A DNA stretch of 64,000 nt from Flaccisagitta enflata (lineage: Eukaryota), in NCBI GenBank assembly GCA_965153355.1, contig OZ231126.1, positions 23,374,001 to 23,438,000 on the forward strand, in the 5' to 3' direction. The number at the start of each line of letters is the position of its first letter. The first letter of the stretch is position 1. Positions 12,851 through 32,089 of this stretch are shown piece after piece. The notes beneath the pieces are model-generated. The model saw only the letters and a program-made list of their open reading frames with translations. It had not been told where the DNA came from and ran no database searches. Made by a program: the position numbers and the translations under genes.

Positions 12851-13013
12851 AAACAAGGCCGGATACACGGCAGGACAATCGCGGACGATTGGGCAGGGGC
12901 GGTAATGCAAAAACCGCTCGCAATTCAGAAATGTCACGGATGGACGGACAGACCGACGGACCGACGGACCAATTGACATGGCAGGGTGTAGAGTCGCGTG
13001 TCCGCAACTAAAA
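12851..13013 (+). mobile_element. HINE family A short copy
   Basis: Head, GACG tract and hairpin tail AGTCGCGTGTCCGCAACT plus A-run. Confidence 0.75.
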
Positions 13014-15646
13014 ATGAAGATTTTCAGTGAAATGACGTGGCGACTATGGGCTTGTCCGAGAGTACAGTACATCGAGTATCTGCGCGCGGGATTTCATGCA
13101 TTTAAAGAGACTTTCACAATGGACAAACAACATACATCTATCCGTGCATGCGCTTGATTGATCCTGGACGGGACGCTTAGAAAAGCCCAGATTTAAAAAA
13201 ACGATTGCATTGGTCCCGATTATCAGATGAACAGCTTCTCGCTATTGACCAGCAAGACTTAGGTAGACAGAGAAAGTGAAGGTTTTCATGGGTTCAAATC
13301 CTGCTTTTTCAGCAAGTACAAAACTAAAAGCCGCTAAAAGCTGCTTCCTAAAAGTTGCTGTTTGTTAATGATTTGTGTTCAGCAACTTTATTGCTACATT
13401 GTATAAAAAGTTACAAATCATAACGCCATCAGATCTATATCACTGACAAATGATACACGGCAATCCAGTCGCGGACGGTTGGGCAGGAGCAGTAATGCGA
13501 AAACCGCTCGCAATTCAAAAATGTTACCGACGGACCAACGGACCGACGGACCCACGGACTGACTGACACGGCAAGGTGTAGAGTCGCGTGTCCGCGACTA
13601 AAAACGGACTTGAAACTCACTTTCCCTCGCTAACTTAGGTTTGTTTTTTAACCACTGTAACTTCGTTTTCTACTGTAGCTTAAGCGCTAATATTTTTAGC
13701 TCTAACACTCTGGAATGATGAAAGAAAAGGCTAAGCCACTTGACTGAGTATTGTTTACAAAAAAGAAATGGCTCACGGTAGAGGAGAGATGAGAGACGGA
13801 GAGATGTTAGGATACACATCTTAAACCTGTGAAATTGAAACCAATCAAAATGGTTTTCCTCATCTTAAAACAAGGCTGGATACACTGCTACCCTAGTCGA
13901 GTGCGGGTCGGCAGAATTTGAGTTTTAAGAACATTTGGGCAGGAGCAGTGAGGCCGAAGACCACAAAGGCATAAAAAAAAGTAAAATGGGGGCCAACCGA
14001 CCGACCGACCACTGGATGGACATGGCCGCCACCCCCTTATTTTCCATAAGAAATGTACAGGAAGGATTTTAACCCTCAATGTTTCCTACACTTTATAATG
14101 GGAATAAGGCAGGGTAGCGGCCATGAGCAGACTTTATCCAATCACCCCCAAATTTTGGATTATTCATCCATGTGGGAAATGGTCACATTTTCTCCGTGGG
14201 CATCATAAGATTTGACTATGAGCCCACTTTAGGCCACCCTAATACCAAGGCTTTCTGTGTTTTAGTTTCTACCAACTTAGATCCATTTAAAACAGTTGTG
14301 CAAAATCGAGTCTTCTTGCACAATTGGCACAGTAATTGGTAAACAGGCGTTAGGTTACGCCATTAGTGGGGTGGGATGAAAACAAAAAGAAATTTACCAT
14401 TATCTTTATTTCATTTCCGAATCACATGATTTAGGTTACGCAATATTGTCACCAGACGCTCAGGTGCCCCTCACCAGTTTCCATATGAATGTATTAGTGG
14501 GAGGGTCTGTAAAAAAATTGAAAAAAATAGAAAATTCGCATTTTGTACAGTGGGGTTTGTGCCAAATACGCTGAAAGAACATTAGTATTTTCTGTAAGAA
14601 ATAGCTCGTTTGACCATTGGCATTGCTAGGGAGCATCATTTAACTGTTGCTAGATATGACGCTCCCTAGGCATTGGGGAAAAGCTCCCACACTTGTTGCC
14701 TAGATAACCTCCTTATTCACTAGCTGATAGGATCATCAGATCTTTTTTTTATATTTTGATTTTTCCTTAACGGAAAAGAGAAAAGTTTAGACCGCCGTCC
14801 TAGTTGTAAAGAACAATATGCAGATTTGGAATTCTCATCATAAGCTCGATCGGGCAAGTATTTCTAATTTTAAAGCACCAGGACTTAAAATGAACAAAGG
14901 AAATTGTTCATAATTATTTATTATTTCTGATGTAAGTGGTTCACAATCAATTTTTTTACCGTCCATACTAAGGGAAAGTTATAGCAAACTTCATTCTGAG
15001 CAATGTTCCTTCTGCAAATATTTTCAAAAGATTTTTTTTTTAGCAATTATGAAGGATCAAAAAAATGTTGGTTTCCATGGCAACCAACAAAGTCAGGCAC
15101 ACAAGTATCAATTGAGCACCTAAATTTCAAATATACAGTTAATCAAATTAAATTGAGATACTTAAATAGCTTCATCCAGTTTAGGGTATTAATGCACTTA
15201 CCCCACTGTATGCATCAAGATACCAGTTCAATTCACAAGACACTTTCTTGTCACTACTCACTACACAGGCCAATATTGTTATCAAATTCCTCACCCAAAA
15301 AAGTGACAATGGCAAACAAGAGTAATTTGAGATGTTTAAAAGCGGCGAAAGTTTTAAGAGCACCAAAGCTGGGTTCAAAATAAGTCATTGCCAATCATAA
15401 AAGGGTAGCATTGAATGAAGGAATGCATTCTATTTACAAGACAAATATGACATAGTAAGACATACGAGTTGTAACTTCTTGCCCGCGAAAGTTTTTGAAA
15501 AGCCACTTTTTTCTCAACAGGATTCTTTTGAATATTTCACATACATTGATTTTAAAAGAATCAGAATTTTTCTTTCTTTTTTTTTCTTTCTTTCTTTCTT
15601 TTTTTTTTTTTCGACCAACAATATTCATCCACTTTTCCGCGTGGTC

Positions 15647-15925: not shown

Positions 15926-16850
15926 TGTTAGAAATGTACGTCTGTCCGTCTCTTAGGTGTGTGTGCCTTCTGTCTCTTTTGCGTGCTTTTGGCTTTTTCT
16001 CTTTCTCTACTATTCGATGCCCGTGTCTTTTGTTTCTTGCCATTTTTTATATTGGACGCTAGATGGGTAACCATATGGTTGCGCCTTGATTTTGTGCCAT
16101 TTGTTTTTACTACGTAGGCAAATATACGTAACTCGTCTTTCGTATCATCCAATTTTTGGATTGATTGATTTTATTTAATTACGGCATCGCTTCTTAGAGT
16201 GATTGATTGATTTTTATGATCGTTTGAATGCGCCCTTGGAATTCACTAATTTCAATAATCTCTCATCTTTTTATTGCAGATAAACTAATGAACGGACAAT
16301 TAACGTTAATTTGACATCGACAGACTGTGGGTTGAAACCAACGAAAGTGGGCCTAAAAGTAAGTTTTATAGACGTGTTTCTGCTTTTATTAACGTTGTTT
16401 TTATCTTGTCTTCCGGTCTGTTATTTTTGTCTTTTGCCCTTTTGCATTTTTATCGCCGGATTTTAGTATGGTTTTTATCGCTTGTCCGATCAGCTTGCTA
16501 TAGGGATGATATGGATGAATTTAATGGGATGGGCCGGGGCAGGGGCAGGTATTATCAGGTGGCATGGGCTCTGAAGAAGATGAACATGTTGTCATGTGCT
16601 GTTTCTGTCCTTTATTGTGTCCTATCTCGATTTCATGTTATCTTTTGCGTTTGCTGATCACAATTAACGCCCACTTTCCCTTTCATTTTTCCCCCTCTCT
16701 TCAGTTGTTGAAATTTTTTTATGGAATAAACGAGACGATCGCCTTCCTATTTTCCAATCGGCCAACTTTCTTTCACCACAAGTCGTCAGTCAGATAGACG
16801 CTCATAGACAGTGCCAGTTGAAACTCGTGGGCGTAATTTATATTTCAACA
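15926..16850 (+). repeat. 5' LTR (925 bp)
   Basis: TGTTAGAAAT...ATTTCAACA (TG..CA with imperfect terminal inverted repeat); AATAAA at 16725; repeated at 28189. Confidence 0.95.
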
Positions 16851-16905
16851 ATTTAAAAACGACTCGATTCTTTTCATCTTCGACCTCCGAAAGCGAAATT
16901 GGACA

Positions 16906-19900
16906 ATGGCAGCCGCGCGTAACGACGACACCGTCTCGACTGCTTCAACGTCATCTCGTGTATCTCACTTCGGTTTGAATCAGTGTCCGAGGTCGAATCG
17001 TTTGCGCGCAATGAGGAACGACATCACTGCGGAAATGGAAGGATGCCGGCGCCTTTTCGACGCCGTTTCTACTTGCACCGAAGGAACGAATGATTTCGAC
17101 GACGCCGCCTGTGAATCGGATGGCGCTCGACACGGCCTTCGGGACATGGTCTACGACTTTATATCGTATGCAAGACAAATGGCGCTCGACTCGATGCCCG
17201 GCGACCCTCTTCGATTCGCGGCGTCTTCTTTGCGTCGAATCCGGCGCGAATGGGACTCCATGCGTTTCTTTGATCGTGAAAACTATCCAGAGGGTTTTCC
17301 TTCCAACGCTGACATCGTGAACGCAGTGCACAATGACATTGGGAATCGCAAAAGACCCGTCAACGAATTCTCATGGAATAGTCTCCCAACTGACACCCAC
17401 GCCGCCCGTGACAATGTTACCGGCGCTCCGACTCCAAGGATGCGAACGTCTTCGCCAAACCCCGACGGATCCGAGTATCTACCACTTCCGGTCCCACGAC
17501 ATGGTGCGCAATCTCCAACTGGCGGCCAATTTTTAAATCTGCCGCCGATCCAAAGAGGAGATGCCGTCAATCAATGGGTATCAGATTTGGTCTCGGAAAT
17601 TGAACCTGCGCGTGCGTCTCCTATGGAGCAAGCTGACGACATGCTTGCGGATCTCGACGACGCCGACGCTCTCGCAAGAGGCCGCGGGATCATCAACGGA
17701 TTGACGCCGCAGGAGAGGGCGAGGCGACGCTTCGTCAACAGGAGTGCTGAGAGAGACAGATGGGGCAGGCAGTTGGAGAGGAAATGCGACAAGGCCGTCG
17801 GCTGATTGACGATATGCAGCAGCAACAACGGGAGGAGGAGCAGCGACAGCAGCAGGAGCAACAGCAGCAGCATCAATTGCAGATGCAGCAGCAGCAACTC
17901 CAACAGCAACGTCAACTCCACCGACCACAGGAGCAGCAGCAAACGACGGCTCAACGGCAGCAGCAAGAGCTGTTGCAGCAGCAGCAGTTGCAGCAACTCC
18001 AACAATTTTGTCAACAAGATCCTGCAGCCGGCGCTCATCATCAACAACAACACGATCAACAGCAGCAACAACAGCAACAGCAACAACAACAAGAGCTGCG
18101 ACAAACGGCAATGCAGCCGCACGAACAACAACAACAGCGGCAAAACGATGCAGGAGAAAGTACGCAACAGCAACAGCAGCAGCAACAGCAACCTCCCGCC
18201 GCAATCCCAGCGGTGGTGGTGGATCCTCCAGCTTCAAACAACCATCTTGTCGAAAGCATGAACGTCAGTGAGGAGACAGAAGAAGAGAGACAGCAACGCC
18301 TTGCAGATCAACGGCTGCGCATGATGGCTGAAGGTGAAGGTGGTGGTGCAGCAACAGCTCCAAAGGCGCCGATCGCGGTGCCATTGGGATTCCAACAGCG
18401 AAGCTCATCACAAGAAGACAAAGAGTTATACGACAGAATGTGTAACTTTCGCCAGCAGCAGCAACGAGATGAAGATAGAAGAGCGGGAATATTCAACAAT
18501 GCGGCAGAAATGCAACGAAAGCACTGGAATAGCCTGAACGACGGCGGCATTGGTGGGGCTTTAGAGCAGCGTGATGTGAAGCTTAGGCAACTGTCTGAGC
18601 TGGAACAGCAGCAGCCGCAGCATCCGCCAAAAGACCGTCGATCTATCTTCAGAAACTTCAATCCTTCAATTCGAACACACAGCAACGTCATGTGCAGTCA
18701 GTGGAAACGTCCGTCAAGCAGCCGATGCAGCAGCAGCAACAGTGGGAGCAGCAGCAGCAGCAAGGACAACGTCAGCGTCAACTGCAGCAGCAGAATGAAC
18801 AGCAACAGCGTCCTGACCAGCAGCAGCAGCTTCAACATCAACAGTGGCAGCAGCAACGGCTTCAACAACAGCAACAGCATCAAGATCAGCATCATCAAGC
18901 CCCAGCAGCAACGATTCTCCCTACCGCACCGGAAGTGATCTTCGAGAAGCAGATTGGCTCTGCTAGAAGGGAGACTGGTCTTCCCCATCAAGAGGAAAAG
19001 GTCTTCAACACAGCCGGAAGCGGAGGTGATGCAACGGAGGCGATGCGCAGGAGGCAGAAACAGGAGGCCGCTGACGCGAAGTTGGCACAACAGCTGCAAG
19101 ATAAAGAGAGAAGGAAAGTCGCTCCTAAGAAGACAACGAATGGATTGCAGCCGAAGGCGCCGAAAGTAGCGCAAGCGCCTCCAGTAACGCCTCAAGCGGA
19201 AGTCATCCAGCAGAATCAACGTTTGCAGCAAGAAGTGGATAGTTTGAAGATGCAGATTCAGCAGAGAGACTTTGACCTTGCCGCAGCGAGAGCGGAAGAA
19301 AAACAACGAAAAGAAGAACAACAACAGCGACAGTACGTCCGCCAAGACTTTGATGCTCCCCGATTCCATCAAGATGATCGTCAACAACAAGTGAATCAGC
19401 AAGAGGAAGTGGGGTGGAGCGTTAAAACCACCAAAAAGAGATCTCCGGTGAAAGTCGGGGGTCAATACGCCTTCGTCCAACAACCCCCAGCGTATCATCA
19501 AGTGGAGCATCATCAAGTAGCCCGTCAACCGGAAGTCCACGTTCAGATGCCCAACAATCCGGCTCTGGACAGGTTTTTGGAAAGAGCGACGTACAATGAT
19601 CTCATGCGAGCAAGGGAGGTCGGCCTCAAAGCGTTGGAGAGAGCAAGACCTGAGAAGCCTCTGCAGGAGCTTTCATCCACCGACTTTATGATGTGGAAGA
19701 GGAAGTTTAAAGATGCTGAGAAGCATGAAGGCTTGACGCAAATGGACATCTTATTGGAATTGCCTAAGTGGTTTGCTGGTCCGGCAAAAGAGATCATAGA
19801 AACTGCGACGATTGATGCAACTGAAGCGACAGCAAGAGGAGAGATTGACGACGCCTTCGCAAAAATGGACGTCGTCTTTATGGCAAGGCGCTGCAACATT

Positions 19901-20683
19901 GCGGCGCTGTTCAACGAAATCGTCGCGGAGGCAAAGATCCAGTCGGCCGACCATGCAAGGCATTTCAATTTGTCTGCAAGGTTGCAAAAGGCAAAGAAGA
20001 TTGCGAGGACCTGTGGAGAAGTGCAACAATGCTATCGTGACGAGCTGCTGCAGGAGATTCTCAACAAGAGGGTCCCTCATCTTGCAGATAAATTCTGGGA
20101 AAAGCAACATGAAGCAGCCCTAAATGGACAATTGTTTTCATTCGACAACTTGGTCAATATGATCGAGACATGGGCGGTGATTCAGCGCAACAAAGGCGCA
20201 AGCTGCAAAACAGCATCAGTGGCAGCAGTCGCAACTACAGAGAAAGAAGCGCCATCATCATATGAAGATGCTTTGACCAATGGCAAGCAAAAGACGCAGT
20301 CGACGGACCGCTGCAACGTCTGCAGTGGAATGCATCAAACGGAAAACTGTCATCAACTATTAGAGTTGGAAGTGGACGCGAGAGTTCAAAAGATCATGTC
20401 TCGCCGTCTTTGCTTCCACTGTCTCACGCCAGGACACAACGCCAAAGAATGCGTGAACAGACCGACTTGCCAAACCTGCAAGAAGCGGCACGCGATTCTC
20501 CACGGGCGCACCTACAAGAAAGAAGAAAAGGAAGAGAAGAAAGGAGAAAACAAGCAGGGAAATAAAGTACCGCTGGCTCCCTTCAAAAAGTCAGAGGATG
20601 CGGCTGCAGCAGCACCAACAGCTCCGTCGACGACGGAGGCAGCCAATCCAACGGAAATCATCTCTCCTAACGCCACGGCATGA
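16906..20683 (+). CDS. gag: gag (glutamine-rich, ~1250 codons across two frameshifts near 17800 and 18680)
   Basis: ORFs 16906-17805, 17760-~18690 and 18692-20683; BEL-type knuckles CNVCSGMHQTENC, CFHCLTPGHNAKEC, CQTCKKRH; long polyQ tracts. Confidence 0.85.
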
Positions 20684-23600
20684 CTGGCGGCGACGGCAAC
20701 GTCGCGGTCCGTCTCTTCATTCGACGACGTTGTCCGTCCGATCGTTCCAGTGACTATATTAAACAATTCTTCGGGTGCGCAGAGGACGATATATGCTATG
20801 ATCGACTCAGGCGCTGATCGCGACGTGATCAGTACCAGCCATTCGCAGTCTTCTGATTCCAACAAAACAGTGCAAATGACGGTGATTACTGTGGGAAGTC
20901 ATGCTGTTGAGGATCGTTTCATCGCATCATTCACCATGCAATCGGTCGACGAGGAATACGCCGCCGACATCAGCGACGCATTGGTGGGTGATTTGTTAAC
21001 GAGTGAACGCGATATTCCTCCTTTTCTCCGCGACCTATCTGACCAACCTCACATCGAAGGCATAAAATTTCCAGAAGCTGAAGGCGGTGTGATGATGATC
21101 ATCGGAGCGGCGCATGCGGATGCCGCTGTCGCTCAAGAAATCCGCGAGGGCCTTCAGGATCTTTGACTTGCTTTAGATGTCTATTCGGTTGGACTGTATG
21201 TGGAAAAACGGGCAAAAGAGGACGAGATATTGCATCGATCAACGCTATCGCGACGGATGACCGCGTCCTCAACGATAATATCGATCGCATCCTCGACAAT
21301 CGCGTCCTCAACAGCAACATCGACCGCATCTTCTACCATGACTTTGCATCATCAATCGTCTCGCAAGAGGAGATGGGTGATTCTCGAAAATGTCAGAGCG
21401 TGCAAAACGTTAGAGGAAAAATATATTTTTGCCCAATTGTGAAAAAGTACTTTGCTCCCGTCACATGGAAATTTCATCATGAAAAAATCATGGAGATTCT
21501 GAGAAGAGTCAAATCACGACCGACTGCGATGAAGCGACTCGGCAACCAACGTTTTCGCTTCAAGCGTGATCCAGCCTTCAAAGAAAGAGTCTTCCGTGAA
21601 ATCGAGAAGTTTTACGAGACGGGAGTGGCGATTGAGATTGACAACGTCGATTTACGACGACGGCATTGAGAAGTCGCGCTGGTACTTGCCGCTTCATATT
21701 GTCGAATTGCGCGGAAAAACGCGCGTATGTCACGATGCGCGTGCGGCGACCGACGGGATCTCACTCAATGATTTGCTCGTCGGAGGCCCAAATTTGATGA
21801 ATAGCCTGATGGACATCCTCATGTGTTGTCAGTGGAAAATCGCCTTTATGTGTGACATAAAGGCGTTTTCCACCAAATCCGCGTCCATCCTGACGACGCT
21901 GATTTATTCAGATTCTTTTGGTTCAAAGATCGCACTCTTCGAAGCAATTTTGAATCTGTTTTTCACACGTCTTCGGCAGCCAATCCAGCTCATTCGTCAC
22001 ATCTTTCACCGTCAGAAAGCATGCTGAAGTAATCCGGCCCAAATACCCCTACAACGTCTACGATCTTATTCGCTATGGCTTTTACGTCGACGACGGAAGT
22101 GGGGGTGGGGATTCGGTCGACGAAGCACTGCAACTAAAGGTGGATTCAGTGGCGGCGATGGCGGAAGGCGGGATGGACCTTGTGAAGTGGAAGAGCAATG
22201 CGCGGCAATTGATGGATGGAGATCCAAATGTGCCAATCCCCATTTCAGATAAGCAAGATGATGCGCCGACGAAGGTGTTGGGCGTCTCATGGCTTCCGGC
22301 GGAAGACGTCTTTATTTTCATCTGCGACGAAGAATTCAAAACTCTTAGAGCAAAACACCTCGTCAATTGGTCTCTATGCAAGCGAAACTTTACGATCCAT
22401 TGGGCTTTTGGAGTCCAAGCGCATACATCGGCAGACGTCATCTTCAACTCTGTCGTCCACAGGAAGTGGGATGGGATTCGCCCTGGAAGAGAGCGTCGAG
22501 GAATCTTCTTCCGCTATACTTTCATCTTGGCCTCTTCTACAACAATATCGAATTGAACGCTGGTGGAATGGCGGCGTCGACAATAGCGACATTGCGGAAG
22601 TAACAATCGAGTTATTTTGCGATGCAGCTCCAAAAGGCGGATATGGAGCAGTTGCATATCGACGTCAAGTCAACCGAGATGGAGATGTTCACATTTCATT
22701 CATCGCCTCCAAATCTCACGTCATTCCTCTCAATCCAAAACGTGCCTCTCATCACAACAGCGTTCCACGCGTCGAGATTGTATCCGCAGAAAAGCAGTGC
22801 AGCTCAAACGCTTCGTCGGAAGGACCATCAACTTGGACAATCTCGTCGCCAGATTTTGGTCCGATTCTGAATCTGCACTGAAGATGATTTATAATCCGGC
22901 AAAACCGAGGCCTGTATTCTTCGCCAATCGTCTCTCCAAGATCCATAGTGGGTCTGATCCTCAACAGTGGCGCTGGGTTGACTCACAAACAACCCGGCGG
23001 ATCACTGTAGCAGAGGCATCCAGGCCCATGAAGCCGAAAAATGGCGTCAATTCCATCAAGGCCCTGCATTTTTGCCTTTCCCAAGATCAATGGCCAAAGA
23101 CGAACATCGCGACGTGCCCTATTTCTGCACAGGTCGCCGCTCTGTATGCGGCTGAGAGTGAAAAGAAACAAGTGGCTGACGCGATACTTCTGCAGCCGCT
23201 TCTCGGGGAAAATGGATGCAGAAATTGCGGATTATCGGCATGGTTCTCATCGCAGGAAAAGGTGGAGAGCCTATCCAAGGGCGAAGACACGAGCAACAAA
23301 AGATCTCCTTCCAAAACCGGAAGTGACGCAAGACGTCGTGGAGGAGGCGCGCAAACAGCTCGTCAAGTCAATGCAGCGGCAGCATTATTCTGACGTCTTC
23401 GAACAATTGAATTGGGAAAGTTTTCAAGCCAGAAAGCCGTCGTGACTTCATCATAAAGAACAAGGAGATGCGGAAACTGAACCCTTTCGTCGACGACGAC
23501 GGCATCCTTCGCGTCGGCAGTCGATTGCAAAATGCCGACATCTCTCACGACGCTAAATTTCCCTTTATCCTGCCGCCAAAAGACGAGAATGTGAAATCAT

Positions 23601-24703
23601 TAATTCGCCATTATCATCATAATGATTTTCACGCGGGTGCAAAGCATACATTGTGCCAATTACGCCAATTTGTGTGGATTACAAAAGGTCTTCAGGCCGT
23701 CAAGAGCGTCGTCAACACGTGCTTTAGATGCCAGAAGAACTTAAAAAGAACGCAAATCAGCAAATGGCCAATCTTCCATCAAATCGCGTCAATCCGGCGC
23801 CTGTCTTTGCAGAGACTGGATTGGACGTCATGGGGCATTTCATGGTAAAAATGAACGGGCGTGCTGATCACAAGGTGTGGATCGCAGTGTTCACCTGTTT
23901 CGTGTCACGCGCCGTCCATGTGGAATTGCTCTTCAACATGTCAGCCGATGCGATGGTAAATGCAATCATCCGCTTTGCAGCAAGGCGCCCAGGAATCCGC
24001 CGTTTCACATCAGATTGTGGGACGAATCTAGTCGGCGCCAACAACATCCTCAAGAAGGAAATGGAAGCTTGGAACCGCTCGTCAACTCCTGAACTGCAGC
24101 GGCGCGGCCTTCGGTGGGATTTTATCACGCCGAGAACACCCCACTATGGAGGGGTGTGAGAATCGTTGTTCTTTAAGCGCCATCTTGCTTCCATCTCAAC
24201 TGGCGCCATCCTCCACGCCGACGCCTTCAACACTGCCGTCGTCGAAGGAAGGAATTCTCAATCGTCGTCCTCTACAGCGCTCAGCGGATGATCCAAATGA
24301 CTCTGAGGCCCTTACACCGAATCATATCCTCAATCCATCAACATCCGGCCATGCCCCTCTAGATCTGGTGCAACAAGGCGTCAATTCTGACGCCGACTCC
24401 GCGAAGATTCAATGGAGGCGTGCGCAATCGCGTGTGGATGCATTTTGGAAATCGTGGAGGGTCGAATATTTGTCGCTTCTTCATGCGCGAAGCAAATGGT
24501 CGAGATCTGAGAAAGACTTTGCGGTGGATGACATGGTCATCGTCATGGACGAAACGCTGCCTCGTCACAATTGGAGCTTAGGACGTGTCATGGGCGTCGA
24601 GGGTTCGTCAGCCCATGTCCGGAGGGCTCACATCCGGCGCCAAGATGGAAAGATCGTGACGAAAGACCGCACGAAGCTCGTGCGGCTGGAATTGGACTCA
24701 TAA
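20684..24703 (+). pseudogene. pol: pol (aspartic protease, RT, RNase H, integrase, C-terminal DUF5641-like domain), multiply frameshifted
   Basis: YAMIDSGAD (PR); VCHDARA, GPNLMNSL, CDIKAF, FYVDD ~22083 (RT); FCDAAPKGGYGAVAY, WSDSE (RH); LNPFVDDDGILRVGSRL, FTCFVSRAVHVEL, SDCGTNLVGA, PHYGG (IN); WRRAQSRVDAFWKSWRVEYL. Confidence 0.92.
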
Positions 24704-25054
24704 AAAACGCTAAGTTTTGAGAGAGAGAGAAAAAGGCGCATGGGCCTGTCCATTAGTAACTATAGATATGAGTGATTGATACTCTGACTTGTTATATTTA
24801 CAAAGAGTTGTTATTATTCATATTTGGTTCTGATTATCCATGCTTTCATCTTTCCTCTTGTCAATTATGTTGTCCATTTCCATTTACACATCAAAACACT
24901 GATTCATTCGCCCTGTCTATATGTACATATTATTGTGCCAAATCCGTTCTTACCTTTATCAGTTCTTCAACACGAACATTTCAAAGCTTCCGCTGACGAC
25001 GTCATTCCATCTACGAAGTCAGTTTGCATCTTGAAGTCGCTCGTCGGAGTCAAG

Positions 25055-27154
25055 ATGTCCCGTCAGCAGCGTCTCGAGGCTGAAGCCGACGTGTCGACGT
25101 CGTACGGGTCCTTGGATCTTCATCGACTCTTCAACGACGGCTCGACTCGAGAGGGATCTGCATCCACGACGTCGTTCGGGGCGGAGGAGGAGGCTGTCGC
25201 GCTGGCAGCCTTCAATGGCGACCTTCGTTCCGTCGTCGACGCAAAAATGGCGAATAAAAAGCGTCAACAAGATGATGCGTTGGTAAATCGTCAACAGCCA
25301 TCCAACGCCGTTGATCCCGCGTCGCTTCCTCCATTGGTGGTCATCAAAGATGGAGGTTCGAGGCGGATTGCGATCAATCGGCCGCCGACGGACTTATCCA
25401 CCACTTCCGCGGCGGCGTCATCATCATCGGATTTGCCCCCATCGCCTCGCCAATTCTGCCTTGATTTCGGTCGCCCAGCGTCTCGTGATCAAGCGTCTGC
25501 AGCTGCACGTCAACGCAGCGGGGGCGAAGAGAGAGAGAGATTGGTCAATGATGGAGCAAGAGTGGAGGAGGAGGGGATGGAAATAGAGGAGGAGGTGTTG
25601 GTGAATGGGGAGGTGGTGGAGAAAGGCATTGACCCGGAAGTGGACACTGCGACGCCGGAAGAGAAACACCAACGGATGCAGGCGCGTTGGTGGTATCGTA
25701 TCATCAGTCCGGACGTCGAAGTATCTCTCCTCTTCAAAGAGTTTGAAAAACTTTCAGTATGCTGCAACAAACAAACTCTCATGCGCTCATCGGCTAATCA
25801 AACAGAGCTGGGCTCGGAGACTCTGGAGCGCAAAATCCAAAGCAATAAGAGAAGGAGGGAGCATGATAAGGAGGTTCGTCGCATGGTCCAGGCGACGAAG
25901 AGGAAGAATGCGGCTCCGAAGCCTCCTGGTGCAACTTCCGTCGACGCTTCCGCAACTCCACCAGCGGTATTCGTGCTCGACGCAGCCGCAGCTACATCAG
26001 CGGCAATTCACTCTACAGCATCAGGAAGTCGTCAATCGCGCCTCGGATTGGTTCATCCCCCAAATCAGCAGCAACAGGGTCCTCGTGACGTCACTCCCTC
26101 ACAACAAGTCGAAGAGATCACGTCGGGGAAAGACTCACAACGCGCAACAAAGGAAATAAACCAAAGGGGCCAGAACCAAAGCAAAGGCCTCTCTCAAGCG
26201 CCCCTCTCCAGTGGCGCCGCCTTCTGGCAGCAGTAACGCCCAAAGGCCAAAGGAGAGTCACGGTTCGCTTCACGGCACCACAGCAACCCAGAAGCTGGAT
26301 CAGGCGCCTGGGGCAGCGGCAGCAAAAGGGAAGAAGACCAAGAGAGCTGGGAAGAAGCACAAAGCAGCAACCATGGGAGGTTCTACTTGCGGCGCTTCGG
26401 CGTCCGCTAAACCTCAAGTCTCTGGTCAGCAGACGGGAGCGTCTTTTCACTCCGCAGCCACTGGGGTCATGTAGGAAGCGAACTAGTTACGTGTGTGCTT
26501 CACATCTGCTGTGCTGTGTAGCGCCTCGTCAGCAGACCTAAGCCTGCCCAAGGTCTGCAGCAAGTGCAGAACCCGCCTCCCCCGTCGGATCCAGCCTTTG
26601 ATCCTGCGCATGGACACCACATCGCCGAGTCATTGCTACGAGAAGCCTCTTCACTGACCTCAAATGCTCCATTGGGGGTGGTGAAGAATTTAGCATCAAG
26701 GCTTCCAAAAGACTTCTTCGCGTCGCTTCCGCCGCGTCAACGAGTTGAAGCGGCTCGTCAAGTCTTAGACGAGAGGATTCGTCGCAATATCCAAAAGGAG
26801 AGAGACGATGCTCGTCGAGCAGCAATGGCTGCGGACAATGAGGTGGTCAAAGGCAATAAGCGAGTCGTGGAACTGGAGAAGCAGCTTGAAAAGGAGAAGC
26901 AGGCCTGTGCGATGAAGGCTAAGAAGAAAGAGGAAGCGGTGGAACGCGCAAAGGCGGCTATGGCCGTCGACTTTAAAACCGCGTCCGCTGTACGTCCAAA
27001 ATTTCGACTGGCGCCGAATTGCGATGCAGCATCTCCACCTCCTGCGTCTTCTCCAGCAGAAAAGTCGGTCAGCAGATCCCGTCGCAAAAAGACGCTCCCA
27101 AGCCTGGGAATAAGAAAAATCGAACCAGGCCTGGAAAAATTGACCGCCAGCTAA
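25055..27154 (+). CDS. Accessory ORF3 of unknown function (disordered plus coiled-coil, not env-like), probably spliced or frameshifted
   Basis: ORFs 24824-26236 (first ATG in the GC-rich part at 25055), 26211-26474 and 26564-27154 on the gag-pol strand with coding-like GC; preceded by pyrimidine tract plus AG at 24961-24962. Confidence 0.6.
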
Positions 27155-28173
27155 ACGCTGATTGGCCATGCCCAGTTGAGGTTCAATTTAACTAAATTTG
27201 CAACATGGCGTGGAGAGCGCCGCCATTCGCTGAGGATCGTATTCCACCGTAGCATCCTCATCCCATCGATGGACAGGCCGGCCAAGTCGGGGGCGCTACC
27301 CGGGGCGTGGGAATGACGTCCGCCCCGGGGCCTGGCGAAAAACGCCCGCGTAAGTTTCATGGTTTAGGAAGGGTTGAAGTTGAGTTTTGTTGTAAATTTG
27401 AATCTGTGTACGATAAGAACTTTACTAATCAATCTGCCCCTGTTCTTCTTTCTTTTCCTTCCCTTCGGGGAGGATTCACTCTCAGACGGCTGCACCACCT
27501 GCGCCTTTCGATGCGGTCATGCTGACCCACATCACTCATCGCCGCCCACGAAAGGACGAGGTGTTGGAGCTGAATGACCCGCTCGTCTCTGTAATGGAGA
27601 AGGCGCAGGTGATGTGGTCGTTCCATGATGCTTACTAATTTTTTTCTTTCATTTAACAGATTCGTTTTTATTATATAGTTAGTAATTTATTTAATTTTGT
27701 CTTGTTTTGTTTGGTTCTTTGGAACATGTACATTTTTGTTGTGTTTGTTTTAGACATGGTCTTTTTAGTCATTATTACGAATACTTTCGTATGACATGTT
27801 TTAGTAGTATGCCCCCACTTATCTTTTTCCACTCTCAAGTCAAATCCCAGGCTTGGAGTGCGCCTAGGCCCGTTCCCCTTTCCCCCCCCCTTCCCTTTAA
27901 CTTTTTTCAGAACGGGCGCCTCAACCTCCTCGTCGCCGCCTCGTCTCCATCCGCGTCGTCATGATCGTTGCAAATTGCTGGTGGTGGATCCTTTCCCGAC
28001 GCGGGAATCATCATTCGCAGTCGCTGATCTGTTGATAGTTAGGGGATGTAAGAGGCGGACGGGGAGGGGCGGGCCAGGTTCTGGTGTCTTTTTTTAAGGG
28101 AAGCAGAGATCGGTTTTTAGTAGGTTTCCCGCACTGGAAACTAGTGTCGGATTTTTGAAATTCGTGAAATTCC

Positions 28174-28188
28174 AAAAATGGGGCAGAA
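28174..28188 (+). promoter_or_regulatory. Polypurine tract
   Basis: AAAAATGGGGCAGAA immediately before the 3' LTR TGT. Confidence 0.8.
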
Positions 28189-29109
28189 TGTTAGAAATGT
28201 ACGTCTGTCCGTCTCTTAGGTGTGTGTGCCTTCTGTCTCTTTTGCGTGCTTTTGGCTTTTTCTCTTTCTCTACTATTCGATGCCCGTGTCTTTTGTTTCT
28301 TGTTCTTGCCATTTTTTATATTGAACGCTAGATGGGTAACCATATGGTTGCGCCTTGATTTTGTGCCATTTGTTTTTACTACGTAGGCAAATATACGTAA
28401 CTCGTCTTTCGTATCATCCAATTTTTGGATTGATTGATTTTATTTAATTACGGCATCGCTTCTTAGAGTGATTGATTGATTTTTATGATCGTTTGAATGC
28501 GCCCTTGGAATTCACTAATTTCAATAATCTCTCATCTTTTATTGCAGATAAACTAATGAACGGACAATTAACGTTAATTTGACATCGACAGACTGTGGGT
28601 TGAAACCAACGGAAGTGGGCCTAAAAGTAAGTTTTTATAGACGCGTCTTGGTTTTAATAACGTTGTTTTTATCTTGTCCGGTCTGTTATTTTTGCCTTTT
28701 GCCCTTTGCATTTTTATCGCCGGATTTTAGTATGATAGTTTTATCATTGCCCGATCAGTTTGCTATAGGGATGATATGGATGGATGAATTTAATGGGATG
28801 GGCCGGGGCAGGGGCAGGTATTATCAGGTGGCATGGGCTCTGAAGAAGATGAACATGTTGTCATGTGCTGTTTCTGTCCTTTATTGTGTCCTATCTCGAT
28901 TTCATGTTATCTTTTGCGTTTGCTGATCACAATTAACGCCCACTTTCCCTTTCATTTTTCCCCCTCTCTTCAGTTGTTGAAATTTTTATGGAATAAACGA
29001 GACGATCGCCTTCCTATTTTCCAATCGGCCAACTTTCTTTCACCACAAGTCGTCAGTCAGATAGACGCTCATAGACAGTGCCAGTTGAAACTCGTGGGCG
29101 TAATTTATA
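28189..29109 (+). repeat. 3' LTR (terminal 8 bp missing)
   Basis: Matches the 5' LTR up to GCGTAATTTATA; lacks the final TTTCAACA. Confidence 0.95.
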
Positions 29110-29481: not shown

Positions 29482-29853
29482 CTGTCATAACAAAAGATGA
29501 TGTTTCAAAATTGTGTCAAGAAAAGCTACCATGAATCGGTGAGGGATGAATTTTTTTCGATTTTCAGCGGGGGGTATTTTGGAAAAAGGCCGGATACACG
29601 GCCATCAGTTGCGGACGGGTGGGCAGGGGCGGAAATGCAACTGTCCGCAACTAAAAATGTTCTAAAACGCTCCTTTCCTCACTTTTCGACTCGTGTCCAC
29701 GGACCGACTGACGAACCGACGGACGGACAAAGCCTCTTATAGAGTTACGTGTCCGCGACTAAAAATTCAAATTGAATTTTTTTCGTTTTTTTTTAATTTT
29801 ACGTTGCGTGTCCGCAACTAAAAAGGCACAGCTGAGCCATTTCTCCAACTTGC

Positions 29854-31280: not shown

Positions 31281-32089
31281 AATGATTTTTAGTTGCGTGC
31301 ACGTGACTCTATGACCCGCTTTGTCGGTCGGTCGATCGGTCAGTCGGTCGGTCGGTCGGTCAGTCGGTCTGTCGGTCAGTCGGTCGGTCAGTCTGTCCGT
31401 CATTTTGCTTTTTTTTTTTGTCGTTTTTGGTCATTTCATGTCATATTGGGTTATTTTAAGTCGTTTTCAGTCATTTTATGTCATTTCCTGTCATTTGGAG
31501 TCATTTTTAGTCATCTAAGTCATTTTGTTATTTTTGTCATTTTAAGTTATTATAAGTCATTTTAAGTCATTCTAAGTCATTTTAAGTCATTTTAAGTCAT
31601 TTTAAGTCATTTTAAGTCATTCTAAGTCATTATGAGTCATTCTAAGTCACTCTAAGTTATTTTATGGCTATTGTAGTTTTTGTCAATTTGCATCATTTTA
31701 AGTCATCTCGAGTCTTTTTTAGTCATCTCAAGTCATCTCAAGTCATTTTACAGCCGGAGATCCTGGGAAAGCTCATTTCTGAGCTTTTGCTTTTTTCGCG
31801 TTTTTTTCTTAATTTCCCACGACCATACATCCTCATCGAGCGGACTAATTCATTTTTTTTTAGAGAATTTTGGGGTAACAGCTATGTTGTAGAGAAAAAC
31901 TGGGATGCAGGTATGGATATTAATCTTTTTTTTCGATTCGAGAAAAAATGAGCGATGAAAATCTCAGACATGGCACCCTTCGATTTTTTTCATTTTTCAC
32001 CCAATGATAGATTTTGGGGTGGGGAATTCATTCAGATTGTCAAATTCGCCCCTCAAATTCTCTTTAAAAATAAATAAAAATAAGCTAAA

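Follow-up and report, generated by a model that had tools for sequence, protein, structure and literature searches.

An intron-less third open reading frame downstream of pol in a BEL/Pao-type retrotransposon copy of Flaccisagitta enflata

The DNA considered here is a 64,000-nucleotide stretch from Flaccisagitta enflata (GenBank assembly GCA_965153355.1, contig OZ231126.1, positions 23,374,001 to 23,438,000 of the forward strand), referred to as the window, and within it the interval 24704–28188, which is spanned by a 13.2-kb copy of a long terminal repeat (LTR) retrotransposon at 15926–29109. In all likelihood the interval represents the 3' third of a BEL/Pao copy and is made up of a spacer, a mutated, continuous and intron-less third open reading frame (ORF3) that does not encode an envelope (env) protein, about 1 kb without coding evidence, and a purine tract. 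A first-pass annotation, made from the letters alone, had proposed that a BEL/Pao element carries, in the place of env, an accessory gene that is undescribed and does not encode an envelope protein, and this part of the proposal is borne out by ORF3, which has relatives in three lineages. The same annotation had divided the region into GC-rich ORFs separated by introns, in place of which there is one gene and then the kilobase just mentioned.

ORF3 and the element that carries it

The gene is best seen through P0010, an intact protein of 703 amino acids that belongs to the window element's own family. A frame-aware protein-to-DNA alignment places all of P0010 (residues 1–703) on 25055–27153, with 602 of 695 aligned residues identical (87%), and passes through eight frame changes near 26108, 26139, 26207, 26454, 26470, 26493, 26539 and 27066. 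On this alignment the separate ORFs of the block all belong to one gene that small length changes have broken up; with its eight frame changes, ORF3 is dead in the window copy. The alignment agrees with the mapping of contigs and reads, which covered the runs X1 (DNA), X15 and X16 (RNA libraries) and X22 (poly(A) RNA, organism A), and in which other copies are 1–2 nt longer or shorter than the window at listed places, 26106 and 27059 among them. The window's own form at 27059 accounts for about one third of the X1 DNA word depth, and hence at least this change is not an assembly error. The peptide features quoted in the first reading of the block (MQARWWYRII, LLFKEFEKL, and acidic and basic runs) are present in the frame of 24788–26236. 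The AT-rich spacer and the GC-rich block of 2.1 kb noted there are likewise found, with a GC content of 0.38 at 24704–25054 against 0.56 at 25055–27153. The parts of the element, in window coordinates, are as follows.

15926–16842, + strand: 5' LTR, direct repeat of 28189–29109
16906–24703, + strand: gag-pol region, broken into about a dozen successive frames in the window copy
17816–18192 and 18737–18891: CAG/CAA (polyglutamine-coding) arrays in gag
24704–25054, + strand: AT-rich spacer of 351 nt from the pol stop to the ORF3 start
25055–27153, + strand: ORF3, decayed copy of a single 703-codon accessory gene, from the alignment to P0010
25610–25909, + strand: conserved block A of ORF3, P0010 residues 186–285, with DPEVDT, QARWWY, LFKEF..LS.CC and KRRRE (coordinates counted from the start codon, the first frame change lying only at 26108)
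26590–26990 (approximate), + strand: conserved block B of ORF3, P0010 residues ~513–645, with FDP..GHHI.E, LPKDF and a long charged helix
27154–28173, + strand: tail separating the ORF3 stop from the polypurine tract, in which GC-rich blocks alternate with AT-rich ones, holding the proposed introns 2 and 3 and the proposed 123-nt exon
28174–28188, + strand: candidate polypurine tract, the purine-rich last 15 bases before the 3' LTR, its role suggested by position
28189–29109, + strand: 3' LTR, direct repeat of 15926–16842

A search with the first ORF of the block (25055–26233) returned seven proteins, including P0004 (427 amino acids) and P0007 (682 amino acids), the second of which is 32% identical to the query and covers the block in full, beginning with MSR..RL and ending in a basic C-terminus. 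A HMMER search with P0007 over 1.84 billion representatives then gave 13 relatives at E <= 0.001, P0010 among them. The 90% cluster of P0010 contains 81 members, and nine of the 15 listed are exactly 703 amino acids long and mutually 97–98% identical. Intact forms are also found in the P0036 lineage (673 amino acids, 50% identity to P0010) and in the P0007/P0034 lineage (682/683 amino acids, 41/39% identity to P0010). The start (MSR..RL) and the stop position are common to all three lineages, and the chance of 703 open codons at the local base composition is about 5e-13. Because the frame is open in three diverged lineages, ORF3 is, as judged from these comparisons, a gene of the element family itself and under long-term selection. 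Block A (186–285) shows 46–67% identity between lineages with one or two gap columns, and block B (513–645) is gapless at 41–50% identity; among nine siblings the variable sites per 100 amino acids number 2.0 in block A, 4.5 in block B and 5.0–12.1 in the other regions.

That the region might be a one-off nested insertion was also considered, and both the intact relatives of these lengths in three lineages and a depth in X1 like that of pol speak against it. In this DNA run 39,351 contigs were placed on the element, and the word depth is 3.6e5–5.5e5 over ORF3, falling to 0.9e5 in the bin where the frame changes cluster, and 4.1e5–8.4e5 over pol. Summed word depth is not copy number, and the depth over ORF3, being of the same order as that over pol, suggests that ORF3 is present in most copies. 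The interval, or part of it, occurs in 20 of the 24 listed runs, which come from 12 studies, are mostly marine metagenomes and include six RNA-library rows. A DNA joint from 24890 to 27401, at a depth of 700, skips 2510 nt of spacer, ORF3 and tail, and a further relative, P0018, is an ORF in which part of an integrase is joined to the C-terminal block of ORF3; these sequences indicate that rare deleted derivatives of the element exist. No longer, fused relatives of P0010 were found, which is weak evidence, and a metagenome contig scan with P0010 gave no relative. Locus L001, from a metagenome contig scan with P0044, was without DNA similarity to the element, had a weak peptide match of 34–36 residues, and was dropped.

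The element itself is bounded by LTRs that are 96.45% identical over 930 aligned columns, with 15 substitutions (1.65%) set against nine indel events in 929 columns; the richness in indels is in keeping with the numerous frame changes of pol and ORF3. The 5' LTR contains AATAAA at 16725 and GTAAGT at 16359, and the pol stop is the TAA at 24701–24703. Pfam searches of the pol ORF pieces found Peptidase_A17 ('Pao retrotransposon peptidase', E 3.7e-12) and DUF5641 (E 6.4e-20) above their cut-offs, Integrase_H2C2 at E 3.4e-10 and rve at E 1.2e-5, which is below its cut-off. DUF5641 is a domain that we take to be typical of BEL/Pao integrases. The gag-pol translation contains CCHC knuckles in gag and a DSG protease motif, the latter lying upstream, with the integrase zinc and core domains at the 3' end; RVP is matched only weakly (E 0.1), and Pfam gave no reverse-transcriptase match in the fragmented gag-pol frames of the window copy. 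At eight listed places in pol, other copies differ in length from the window by 1–2 nt. Because of its Pao-type pol domains, CCHC knuckles and DSG protease motif, the element is assigned, on sequence, to the BEL/Pao-type (Belpaoviridae) LTR retrotransposons. Its length of 13.2 kb exceeds the 4.2–10 kb given for genomes of this family in the Belpaoviridae profile of the International Committee on Taxonomy of Viruses (ICTV), length being descriptive and not diagnostic; a long gag region with its CAG/CAA arrays, ORF3 and the 1-kb tail account for the excess. There is no second copy of the element within the 64-kb window.

Splice-like signals and the kilobase downstream of ORF3

The exon–intron model of the first-pass annotation saw a multi-exon accessory gene with sense-strand introns at 26471–26521/26532, 27350–27485 and 27609–27910, which would be kept in the genomic RNA and removed from a subgenomic messenger RNA (mRNA). 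The model draws on splice-like words that are indeed all present: the pol stop is followed by a pyrimidine tract with AG at 24961–24962, GTAGGA lies at 26471 with AG at 26520–26521 and CAG at 26530–26532, GTAAGT at 27350 is followed by CAG at 27483–27485, a CAG/GT junction falls at 27608/27609, and TTTTTTCAG ends at 27910. It also draws on the alternation of GC-rich and AT-rich blocks, which is found downstream of 27154 and is missing at the first proposed intron, 26471–26532, where the GC content is 0.53 and the sequence is not AT-rich. The GC contents from the ORF3 stop onwards are given below.

27154–27349: 0.61
27350–27485: 0.39
27486–27608: 0.60
27609–27910: 0.36
27911–28188: 0.53

By eye, and uncounted, the sibling ORF calls seem to vary more in the AT-rich stretch than in the GC-rich ones, and coordinate arithmetic puts the 123-nt exon in phase with the frame after 27910. 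Set against all of this is the behaviour of intact copies, which leaves the model barely tenable. Intron 1 is coding in these copies, with both P0004 and P0010 reading straight through it, and in the window it falls within a stretch of seven frame changes relative to P0010; on these sequence comparisons intron 1 is refuted. Introns 2 and 3 lie downstream of the stop that is common to the three lineages and therefore cannot belong to ORF3. The 123-nt exon (27486–27608), described as open, is open in that frame in the window copy only, and in 27 of 30 sibling ORF calls its two halves are both read in a single different frame that extends across intron 2; 23 of the 30 calls start at a methionine inside that intron. 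A search with the 69-residue frame that contains the exon gave four clusters, all of the same family and 91% identical to the query across 45% of its length. Moreover, the frame that would be needed upstream of the donor at 27350 has, in the window copy, a stop 12 codons before it, and GTRAGT is not enriched in the window, with 37 occurrences against 50 +/- 5.6 in shuffles.

The RNA libraries point the same way. Contigs from them are colinear across all three proposed sites, X16 record 22 running over 24738–26136 and 26227–26901, X15 record 16 over 27008–27518 and X16 record 23 over 27465–28044, and none of the 15 listed joints (of 433) comes from an RNA run. A rare spliced form across introns 2 and 3 may still be compatible with these contigs, since they could represent unspliced genomic RNA or carried-over DNA. 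The idea that the element regulates the retention of its introns is not supported because the sense-strand introns themselves are not, and ORF3 is an extra, family-specific ORF of an LTR retroelement for which retained sense introns do not hold. For annotation more generally, the lesson is that the splice-like words and frame changes of one decayed copy should be checked against intact siblings before introns are called.

The tail between ORF3 and the polypurine tract gives ORF calls that match the same family only and that have shifting frames, starts and ends. In some siblings a colinear ORF of up to 162–163 amino acids, beginning some 14 nt past the ORF3 stop, might be read as a small fourth gene: P0058 and P0066 (162 and 163 amino acids) are open from just past the ORF3 stop to the TAA at 27636–27638, and some 160 open codons that include an AT-rich stretch are unlikely by chance (about 1e-3 per frame, on our own estimate). 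Yet only four of the 30 sibling calls (121–163 amino acids) reach upstream of 27350, the 23 mentioned above starting at an internal methionine, and the ends differ, 15 stopping after HDAY and 13 reading on. The matches all belong to the same close family, with no diverged relative found, the composition looks by eye like off-frame GC-rich sequence, and a stop and frame changes interrupt the frame in the window copy. A fourth gene is thus quite improbable, and the ORF at 27165–27638 is probably not a gene.

At the level of RNA structure, most of the proposed 123-nt exon lies in an imperfect hairpin, 27482–27617, with 29-nt arms that are 72% complementary and a perfect 9-nt pair, and a perfect 9-bp stem is found at 27299–27329. 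A structured-RNA tail was entertained and set aside, the fold z-scores of -3.3 and of -2.7 to -3.2 being matched by two of ten control windows (-3.23 and -3.54, in gag-pol and ORF3).

Around the element, tandem arrays adjoin one another at 31323–31401 (GTCG, 20 copies) and 31430–31750 (33 copies of the 10-nt unit GTCATTTTAA). A short dispersed repeat, in which a run resembling GACCGACGGAC is accompanied by a conserved 3' part, occurs at 12862–13014, 13452–13604 and 29699–29765, one copy thus lying about 600 nt beyond the 3' LTR. Neither Rfam nor a tRNA search gave a match over the whole window, and Pfam found no family in 14 other window ORFs of at least 160 amino acids.

The ORF3 protein, its expression and its possible role

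The absence of a membrane segment, on which the first reading had based its rejection of an envelope glycoprotein, is confirmed, the highest 19-residue Kyte–Doolittle mean being 1.17 in P0010, 0.83 in P0007 and 0.81 in P0011. The ORF3 protein has neither the signal peptide nor the membrane segment looked for as marks of an Env. Nor did any Pfam family reach its cut-off with the protein. That ORF3 could nonetheless be a captured host gene, or a degenerate env that has lost its membrane parts, is suggested by its orphan status, with no viral relative found, by its env position and by the env-like genes that BEL/Pao elements carry (ICTV profile). This origin is very improbable: none of the three lineages has a hydrophobic segment, the protein is for the most part predicted to be disordered, which is not what a glycoprotein ectodomain looks like, and those of the 13 relatives in 1.84 billion representatives that can be judged are all copies of the same gene, one of them integrase-fused. 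No host-like and no longer relative was found either, although the searches could miss a host gene.

The protein is basic, with a pI (isoelectric point) of 9.8, and carries conserved clusters of lysine and arginine, KRRRE, KRSRRGK and KKTKRAGKKHK, which by eye look like nuclear import signals. AlphaFold2 models made with 10 and 13 aligned sequences have a mean predicted local distance difference test (pLDDT) score of 49.5 and 49.3, with 465 and 467 of the 703 residues below 50, so that about two-thirds of the protein is predicted to be disordered. The model is confident only at ~520–645 (pLDDT 88–95), where two short helices are followed by one of about 80 residues; the helices at 201–285 are of moderate confidence, those of block A having a pLDDT of 52–87. 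In the long helix the heptads are weak, with 0.25–0.42 of the a/d positions hydrophobic and 0.40–0.43 of the residues charged, and on the model it may equally well be a coiled coil or a single charged helix. A fold search of the PDB, with a model of low confidence outside 520–645, returned only tied, generic coiled coils (Z 6.4–6.8). By sequence the best PDB match has an E-value of 0.73 with a single sequence and 1.1 with a profile, the viral models of BFVD gave no match at E <= 0.001, and the Protein Atlas gave no usable match with the whole protein or with residues 186–290. A basic leucine zipper reading of the C-terminal helix (MafG, E 0.79) was rejected, the basic-region signature being absent by eye.

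Function, localisation and the route of expression we infer from these features and from known systems. Tentatively, the ORF3 protein may be a nuclear, nucleic-acid-associated accessory factor that aids the element's own RNA or expression. HIV (human immunodeficiency virus) Rev is an accessory factor that helps viral RNA and its expression. By analogy with Rev and with the CERV protein of the Cer1 retrotransposon, ORF3 would act in the nucleus on the RNA or the chromatin of the element.

Translation of the protein would require an RNA distinct from the gag-pol message, either a subgenomic mRNA made through the acceptor-like site at 24962 or a transcript that starts within the spacer. The AG at 24961–24962 is the only one in the spacer with at least 12 pyrimidines in the 16 positions upstream (13 of 16). 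Five ATGs lie upstream of it and none from there to the ATG of ORF3, a gap of 92 nt in which about 1.4 would be expected on our own estimate and which is not significant; the fold z-score of the spacer is -1.1. On the + strand GTRAGT occurs inside the element only at 16359 and 28627, in the LTRs, and at 27350. As a donor for a subgenomic RNA the LTR site at 16359 was rejected as anything beyond a candidate, for it lies 366 nt upstream of the AATAAA at 16725, and its use would call for an R region of unusual length. On the RNA side, ORF3 is covered colinearly by contigs from the libraries X15 and X16, and a further protein, P0001, derives from a source labelled 'merc'.

A different role is suggested by the basic, disordered character of the protein and its long helix, namely that ORF3 supplies the particle with a second structural or chaperone protein, comparable to the LINE-1 ORF1p nucleic-acid chaperone, and not a nuclear regulator. 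The coiled coil of human LINE-1 ORF1p is among the tied matches to the helix (rank 27, Z 6.5), but it is one of 50 such generic coiled coils. Moreover, a gag with CCHC knuckles is already present in the element, ORF3 has no similarity to the gag ORFs (BLASTP E 2.8 and 0.062), and the lysine and arginine clusters described above resemble import signals. A particle protein of this kind is therefore unlikely.

Several observations weigh against a nuclear accessory factor made from its own RNA. A function is assigned to a protein without a family, fold or motif match in Pfam, the PDB, the fold searches or the Atlas, and on the model its long helix may be a single charged helix that does not oligomerise. 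The poly(A) run X22, of which about 6% was read, gave 35 partial reads on a CAG-rich stretch of gag and none elsewhere, ORF3 included; neither expression nor junctions are seen in this sample. The metatranscriptome contigs may be carried-over DNA or unspliced genomic RNA. The RNA contigs are no deeper at ORF3 than at pol, so that nothing points to an abundant subgenomic RNA, and there is no joint to 24962 among the 15 joints listed of 433. The position between pol and the LTR is seen only for the window's own family and in the integrase–ORF3 fusion ORF P0018.

Comparison with other retroelements

The closest parallel to a nuclear role for ORF3 is CERV, from Cer1, a Ty3/gypsy element of C. elegans. 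Its gene occupies the env position but does not encode an Env; the protein is expressed from a spliced mRNA, and export of the genomic RNA depends on it (PMC10309623). CERV has 517 amino acids and three structured domains, and its five-exon mRNA shares exons with gag (PMC10309623). Both proteins have basic clusters resembling import signals and a long helix or zipper-like element, and both are encoded by the element downstream of pol, ORF3 being conserved in its family. In contrast to CERV, ORF3 belongs to a BEL/Pao and not a Ty3/gypsy element, and has 703 amino acids, one exon, its own start codon and, by prediction, mostly disordered sequence. No CERV-like similarity of sequence or fold turned up in the general searches with ORF3, in which CERV was not compared directly. 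What CERV provides is the precedent that a gene in the env position can serve the export of unspliced genomic RNA.

Within the BEL/Pao superfamily the elements Tas, Cer7/13 and roo have an env-like third gene. Such genes are a known feature of BEL/Pao elements (ICTV Belpaoviridae profile) and share with ORF3 the superfamily and the position downstream of pol; unlike them, ORF3 is without a signal peptide, a membrane segment or a glycoprotein match. The plant LTR retrotransposons offer a further comparison in their additional ORFs (aORFs), which are found in Ty3/gypsy and Ty1/copia elements and are in many cases antisense (PMC7264820), whereas ORF3 is in sense; the likeness is one of kind, and homology is not expected. 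The Tor elements of Oikopleura have two ways to express their third gene, a spliced RNA that begins in the LTR and an internal promoter located after pol (PMC4402516), and the same two are open to ORF3. Tor elements differ from the element described here in being Ty3/gypsy-like and in that their third gene encodes a true membrane glycoprotein (PMC4402516). ORF3 resembles CERV, the BEL/Pao env-like genes and the plant aORFs in position and logic, without detectable similarity of sequence or fold.

In the BEL/Pao overviews consulted (ICTV profile; de la Chaux & Wagner 2011), the elements are described as having gag, pol and at most an env-like gene. No report of a conserved non-env third gene in BEL/Pao was found in open-access text, and supplements and Repbase may hold such elements. 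Speculatively, and with considerable doubt, ORF3 could be an independently evolved regulator of the Rev/CERV type in the third great superfamily of LTR elements, a disordered, basic, nuclear protein that would bind the element's unspliced RNA, perhaps in the 1-kb tail, and so secure its export or its protection from silencing. If this were true, a very abundant BEL/Pao family of a marine animal would be a 'complex' retroelement. The element family is very abundant in the DNA of its host and is found in many marine metagenomes, and ORF3 may help to explain this success.

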